From assembly GCF_003018255.1 (NCBI RefSeq), contig NZ_CP027440.1: 64,000 bases of DNA; one strand, given 5' to 3'. The notes beneath the pieces were generated by a model. It was not told where the DNA came from and searched no databases. It saw only the letters and a list, made by a program, of their open reading frames with translations. Shown here in pieces: positions 4,075 to 4,388 of the stretch (within the stretch, counting starts at the first letter, position 1; every line of letters starts with the position of its first letter). The position numbers were made by a program, and so were the translations under genes. The stretch is from Escherichia coli (GTDB taxonomy: Bacteria; Pseudomonadota; Gammaproteobacteria; Enterobacterales; Enterobacteriaceae).

Positions 4075-4388
4075 TTGGGGCCAAACTGTCCATATCATAA
4101 ATAAGTTACGTATTTTTTCTCAAGCATAAAAATATTAAAAAACGATAAAAAGCATCTAACTGTTTGATATGTAAATTATTTCTCTTGTAAATTAATTTCA
4201 CATCACCTCCGCCAAATGTAAAGCTAACGTTTCTGTGGCTCGACGCATCTTCCTCATTCTTCTCTACAAAAACCACCTCATGCAATATAAAAATCTATAA
4301 ATAAAGATAACAATAGAATATTAAGCCAACAAATAAACTGAAAAAGTTTGTGCGCGATGCTTTCCTCTATGAGTCAAAATGGCCCCAA
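4075..4388. other. fimS: fimS invertible phase-variation element (314 bp) bounded by 9-bp inverted repeats
   Basis: TTGGGGCCA at 4075-4083 and its reverse complement TGGCCCCAA at 4380-4388; AT-rich interior; located between fimE and fimA. Confidence 0.85.
4094..4123 (-). promoter_or_regulatory. Sigma70-like promoter inside fimS (-35 TTGAGA, 18-bp spacer, -10 TATGAT) reading toward fimE, i.e. away from fimA
   Basis: On the minus strand: TTGAGA (complement of 4118-4123), 18 nt, TATGAT (complement of 4094-4099), about 10 bp inside the left inverted repeat. No comparably good promoter faces fimA next to the right inverted repeat. Confidence 0.55.

Follow-up and report, generated by a model that had tools for sequence, protein, structure and literature searches.

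The 314-bp segment between positions 4075 and 4388 is almost certainly the canonical Escherichia coli fimS element, captured in its default phase-OFF orientation. Here, the window is the whole stretch of 64,000 nucleotides that was analysed, and all positions are counted from its first letter. In the assembled orientation the promoter-bearing end of the element lies beside the left inverted repeat, so that transcription from it is directed away from fimA, and the fimAICDFGH operon is left promoterless. The preliminary description had read the switch as apparently phase-OFF and had named comparison with reference sequences as the test that could overturn this reading. That comparison favours OFF: the reference strain MG1655 is colinear with the window, and in the phase-ON assembly RM9088 the promoter faces fimA. 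In silico restriction with BstUI and HinfI and the position of a published probe point in the same direction.

Organization and orientation of the fim switch

Over its first 24 kb the window is essentially identical (2 mismatches) to E. coli JNE23-011 (NZ_AP045067.1), a human isolate from Japan, and the RefSeq names of the matching genes in that genome are fimB, fimE and fimAICDFGH. According to the ORF map and this annotation, the element separates fimE from fimA, and the two recombinase genes fimB and fimE directly precede it. The repeats TTGGGGCCA and TGGCCCCAA enclose 314 bp, and the fimA promoter (TTGAGA-18-TATGAT), assigned by its identity to MG1655 and by its position in an ON assembly, is found at one end of the element. 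Moreover, both orientations occur in nature, in 4457 and 248 genomes, respectively, and RM9088 carries an exact inversion between the repeats. The features of the locus are as follows.

2351..2953, plus strand: fimB, tyrosine recombinase inverting the switch both ways; uninterrupted 200-aa ORF
3431..4027, plus strand: fimE, tyrosine recombinase acting from ON to OFF; 198-aa ORF, FimE in the JNE23-011 annotation
4030..4042, minus strand: predicted IHF site outside the switch beside IRL, at the position of the published IHF-1; perfect match to the consensus WATCAANNNNTTR
4075..4388, no strand: fimS invertible element, 314 bp, 32% GC, phase-OFF; colinear with MG1655, with OFF patterns for BstUI and HinfI in silico
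4075..4083, no strand: IRL, the left 9-bp inverted repeat TTGGGGCCA
about 4087, minus strand: predicted transcription start, an A located 7 nt past the −10 hexamer, placed from the promoter geometry
4094..4123, minus strand: fimA promoter reading toward fimE, a 10/12 consensus site; −35 TTGAGA (4123..4118), 18-nt spacer, −10 TATGAT (4099..4094)
4107..4112, no strand: SnaBI site TACGTA, an asymmetric orientation marker, near IRL when OFF
4157..4169, minus strand: predicted IHF site inside the switch, at the position of the published IHF-2; perfect match to WATCAANNNNTTR
4197..4330, plus strand (fimE-sense): C-rich, G-poor tract, candidate rut region of the orientation-dependent fimE Rho terminator, assigned from its C/G skew
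4353..4356, no strand: BstUI site CGCG, the only one in the OL20/OL4 amplicon, near IRR when OFF
4371..4375, no strand: HinfI site GAGTC, near IRR when OFF
4380..4388, no strand: IRR, the right 9-bp inverted repeat TGGCCCCAA, reverse complement of IRL
4508..5062, plus strand: fimA, major type 1 fimbrial subunit, here cut off from its own promoter; 184-aa ORF, FimA in JNE23-011
5127..11109, plus strand: fimI, fimC, fimD, fimF, fimG and fimH, the remaining operon, with every ORF intact

Both recombinase genes are preserved. FimB is full length and is annotated in JNE23-011 at identical coordinates, and in the protein comparison FimE was identical to FimE of MG1655. A repeat search detected partial symmetry extending outward of the two repeats to 22 nt on either side (4062–4083 and 4380–4401, 77% complementarity). 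In the published layout IHF-1 adjoins IRL and IHF-2 lies within fimS, and the two predicted IHF sites occupy these positions; matches to an Lrp-like consensus inside the element were weak, with 2–4 mismatches. Downstream of fimS the fimbrial operon comprises seven genes, the first of which starts at 4508. The FimA encoded here is 184 aa long compared to 182 aa in K-12; two residues are inserted behind the signal peptide, and substitutions are scattered over the protein. From the predicted protein, these differences represent the usual antigenic variation of the major subunit.

The orientation was determined in four ways. First, the whole interval from fimE through fimS to fimA is colinear with MG1655 (NC_000913.3), with eight substitutions within the element, which leave repeats and promoter untouched. 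A paired-end sequencing study found K-12 cultures to be 98–99% in the reference orientation, a figure that agrees with published OFF-biased switching rates (PMC4272514). Second, the published assay with primers OL20 and OL4 and digestion by BstUI yields 539 and 187 bp for OFF and 433 and 293 bp for ON (PMC9993118). These primers match the window with 0 and 1 mismatch, and in silico digestion gave 539 and 188 bp for the native sequence and 293 and 434 bp when the element was flipped. Third, the HinfI orientation assay, already suggested in the preliminary description, was run in silico with primers CMD1258 and CMD1259, for which OFF fragments of 411 and 239 bp and ON fragments of 128 and 522 bp were published (primers in the supplement; PMC6727828); similar HinfI sizes were given for MG1655 in a third paper. 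Here, the native sequence gave the OFF sizes (about 411 and 245 bp) and the ON sizes (128 and 528 bp) appeared only after flipping; the offset of a few bp is on the fimA side, and the 5′ region of fimA is 6 nt longer in this strain. Finally, a published 135-bp probe for the phase-OFF right end of fimS (primers BSFORBIO and BSREVBIO) maps colinearly to 4273–4407. Thus, alignment, BstUI pattern, HinfI pattern and probe all agree on OFF.

The fimA promoter and possible transcription into fimE

A consensus scan of 3900–4600 returned a single sigma-70-like site matching at 10 of 12 positions, the minus-strand TTGAGA-18-TATGAT, which is placed 10 nt inward of IRL and reads toward fimE. This is, base for base, the site that the preliminary description had singled out as the best one. 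On the plus strand the same scan found one 9/12 match in the middle of the element (4164–4193). A second promoter facing fimA, near IRR or in the spacer between IRR and fimA, was considered and rejected, as the scan of 3900–4600 contained none; the earlier statement that no comparable promoter faces fimA beside the right repeat thus holds. The motif score itself was rejected as proof of a promoter: when the AT-rich 314 bp were shuffled 2000 times with dinucleotides preserved, 410 of the shuffled sequences (about 20%) had a site of at least 10/12 as well. Since the motif alone is not beyond chance, the identification as the fimA promoter rests on comparison, namely its identity in MG1655 and the fact that it faces fimA in ON assemblies. 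A literature search for the promoter hexamers together with fimA returned nothing relevant. The fimA transcription start has been reported to be an A (PMC9096935), and an A is also present at the predicted start around 4087.

The spacer between fimS and fimA holds a further sequence on the plus strand, at 4438–4443, where TTGACA forms a perfect −35 hexamer; MG1655 has TTTACA at this place, the difference being G versus T at 4440. By inspection, no usable −10 element was present at 16–18 nt from this hexamer, and the promoter scan reports no site there.

According to the literature, a Rho-dependent terminator inside OFF-oriented fimS lowers fimE mRNA and mainly accounts for the drop in fimE in this state. 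The composition of the element fits these accounts of OFF-specific Rho termination: on the fimE-sense strand, a tract rich in C and poor in G exists in the native orientation alone. Within 4197–4330, windows of 78 nt reach 26 C versus 9 G, with C/G ratios of up to 4.25, whereas in the flipped element the ratio in the same region falls to 0.25–0.5. Likewise, the element contains 36 YC dinucleotides in the native and 13 in the flipped orientation. From this skew we infer that the tract at 4197–4330 would serve as the rut site.

Alternatively, or in addition to the Rho terminator, the fimA promoter might be active in its OFF position, and antisense RNA over the 3′ end of fimE might lower fimE expression, an explanation that we consider rather unlikely. 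The geometry is right for a promoter predicted to read into the 3′ end of fimE: the predicted start at about 4087 is located 12 nt inward from the outer edge of IRL, about 60 nt away from the fimE stop codon, and an intrinsic terminator was not detected on the minus strand across fimE. Against this, no antisense RNA is annotated at the locus in MG1655, and reviews explain the lower fimE expression in OFF cells by Rho-dependent termination within fimS. H-NS, moreover, covers fimE in wild-type cells. Antisense RNAs that are not translated are, moreover, typically targets of Rho themselves. The idea is not new, as the paired-end study already put it forward ('probably by transcribing its antisense'; PMC4272514). 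This passing statement was the only one returned by a text search of the literature for evidence on fimE antisense RNA or transcription starts. It is quite unlikely that the displaced promoter gives rise to a short antisense RNA spanning IRL and the 3′ end of fimE and that this RNA, or convergent transcription, measurably reduces FimE and helps to hold cells ready for OFF-to-ON switching by FimB. If true, antisense transcription would add another level of orientational control to that exerted by the Rho terminator. We prefer Rho-dependent termination as the explanation for the effect on fimE: in the OFF state, fimE read-through RNA carries the C-rich fimS tract, at which, according to published work, Rho terminates transcription and thereby reduces fimE expression in afimbriate cells.

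Phase of the sequenced culture and of other genomes

Orientation was surveyed among complete E. coli genomes with native and flipped versions of 3900–4600 as queries, and a match was counted when it extended over at least 80% of the query length. A genome of the opposite orientation can align along one strand to no more than about 55% of either query, and therefore the two orientation classes are clean. Among the 4720 complete genomes with the locus, 4457 were in the native orientation and 248 were flipped, a split of about 94.7% OFF to 5.3% ON. In RM9088 (NZ_CP042298.1), which is ON, the element aligns base for base to the reverse complement of the element in the window, and the identical TTGAGA-18-TATGAT is found on the fimA strand next to IRR, with its end about 140 nt upstream of the start codon of fimA.

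Two ON assemblies showed further peculiarities. In RM9088 the inner recombinase half-site contains one additional T directly inside IRR (CAGTTTTGGCCCCAA versus CAGTTTGGCCCCAA; about 770–790 of the RM9088 locus). This T could affect the action of FimE or FimB and might bias the strain toward ON. In the phase-ON assembly NZ_CM134208.1 the match coincides, next to fimE, with a transposase of the IS1A family, which suggests that some ON assemblies are fimE-disrupted strains and not chance captures.

By the established mechanism FimB, in both directions, and FimE, from ON to OFF, invert the 314-bp element at its 9-bp repeats. IHF and Lrp bend the DNA, and inversion either joins the promoter to fimA or disconnects it. 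When fimE is intact, its ON-to-OFF bias dominates and most cells are OFF. Since both recombinase genes are intact here and FimE is dominant, an ordinary culture should be overwhelmingly OFF, and the consensus assembly records this state. It is thus reasonable to assume from a consensus assembly that the sequenced population was predominantly afimbriate.

A less direct relation between assembly and culture is also conceivable, in which the culture was substantially mixed or even rich in ON cells and the assembler emitted one of two paths, so that the assembled orientation says little. Both orientations are indeed represented among the complete assemblies surveyed, and orientation varies with growth conditions, reaching for example 90.8% ON in the inoculum of one UPEC strain. 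However, the repeats are only 9 bp long, so that the junctions are bridged by reads and the consensus reflects the majority; ordinary cultures in which fimE is intact settle at about 99% OFF, and the 95:5 ratio among assemblies fits majority calling. We regard a substantially mixed or ON-rich culture as very unlikely and retain a predominantly OFF culture as the probable source of the assembled orientation.

A switch genetically locked in OFF and unable to invert, as has been reported for some pathotypes including EPEC E2348/69, and with fimS deletions known from some lineages such as O157:H7, was rejected as extremely improbable, because the element has its full 314 bp with both 9-bp repeats perfect, fimB and fimE are full length, FimE does not differ from the functional protein of K-12, both IHF sites match the consensus perfectly, and all eight substitutions relative to K-12 are located outside the repeats and the promoter.

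The feature is therefore best described as the textbook fim switch in its default state, which it shares with the K-12 reference genome and with about 95% of the complete assemblies of E. coli. OFF is the default state, it is expected for a strain with intact fimE, and the significance implied by the preliminary description was overstated. The assembled orientation of fimS reflects the phase that prevailed in the sequenced culture and matters mainly as an annotation point. It does not mark the strain as devoid of type 1 fimbriae, since the complete fim operon is intact, as are the switch and the two recombinases. The survey (4457 OFF versus 248 ON) provides a baseline for flagging unusual isolates that are locked in ON.

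Neighbouring loci and comparison with known systems

Beyond the fim region, the similarity to JNE23-011 decreases. From about 24 kb onward mismatches to NZ_AP045067.1 climb to as many as 33 per kb, and gene content differs at 32–42 kb, a pattern that looks like a recombination mosaic, so that the window would stem from a relative rather than from JNE23-011 itself. Before this segment, at 27810–29051 on the minus strand, mdtM is an uninterrupted ORF of 413 aa, whereas JNE23-011 has a copy that contains an internal stop and is annotated as a pseudogene.

The region at 32–42 kb corresponds to the hsd/mrr locus of K-12. At 32545–34638 on the plus strand a protein of 697 aa is encoded, with the Pfam domains GmrSD_N and GmrSD_C and a C-terminal DUF5655; the PADLOC models Orf5 and HEC-06 match as well, and among the NCBIfam models no match was found. 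By its domains, the product looks like a type IV (modification-dependent) restriction enzyme of the GmrSD family. Further downstream, positions 35247–40951 on the minus strand hold a type I restriction-modification system of the EcoAI family, which differs from the type I system at the corresponding place in JNE23-011. Its genes are:

35247..36983, minus strand: hsdS
36983..38488, minus strand: hsdM
38519..40951, minus strand: hsdR

In the 31%-GC kilobase between hsdR and yjiA, an ORF of 333 aa with a TTG start was found at 41059–42060 on the plus strand, presumably at the position of mrr in K-12. Most of its product appears very hydrophobic, whereas the C-terminal part is polar, and no match was found in Pfam, NCBIfam or PADLOC. 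It may be an unknown gene of a defence island or a spurious ORF.

The switch itself can be compared with three systems. With fimS of MG1655 (NC_000913.3, between fimE b4313 and fimA b4314) it shares the length of 314 bp, the 9-bp repeats, the flanking genes, and the promoter hexamers with their spacing; the deposited MG1655 sequence is likewise OFF, and FimE is identical. The two differ by the eight substitutions in the element, by 1 bp in an A-run upstream of IRL, by G instead of T at 4440, and by the FimA variant of 184 aa as opposed to 182 aa. RM9088, which is phase-ON, shares the element and its flanks at about 98% identity; it differs in that the element is reverse-complemented, with the promoter on the fimA strand beside IRR, and in the one extra T next to IRR. 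A more distant parallel is the flg switch of Clostridioides difficile. It is also a short invertible segment bounded by inverted repeats and acted on by a tyrosine recombinase, and orientation-dependent Rho termination has been reported for the OFF state of both flg and fimS. In contrast to fimS, the flg switch is unrelated in sequence and host, acts after transcription initiation and carries no promoter.
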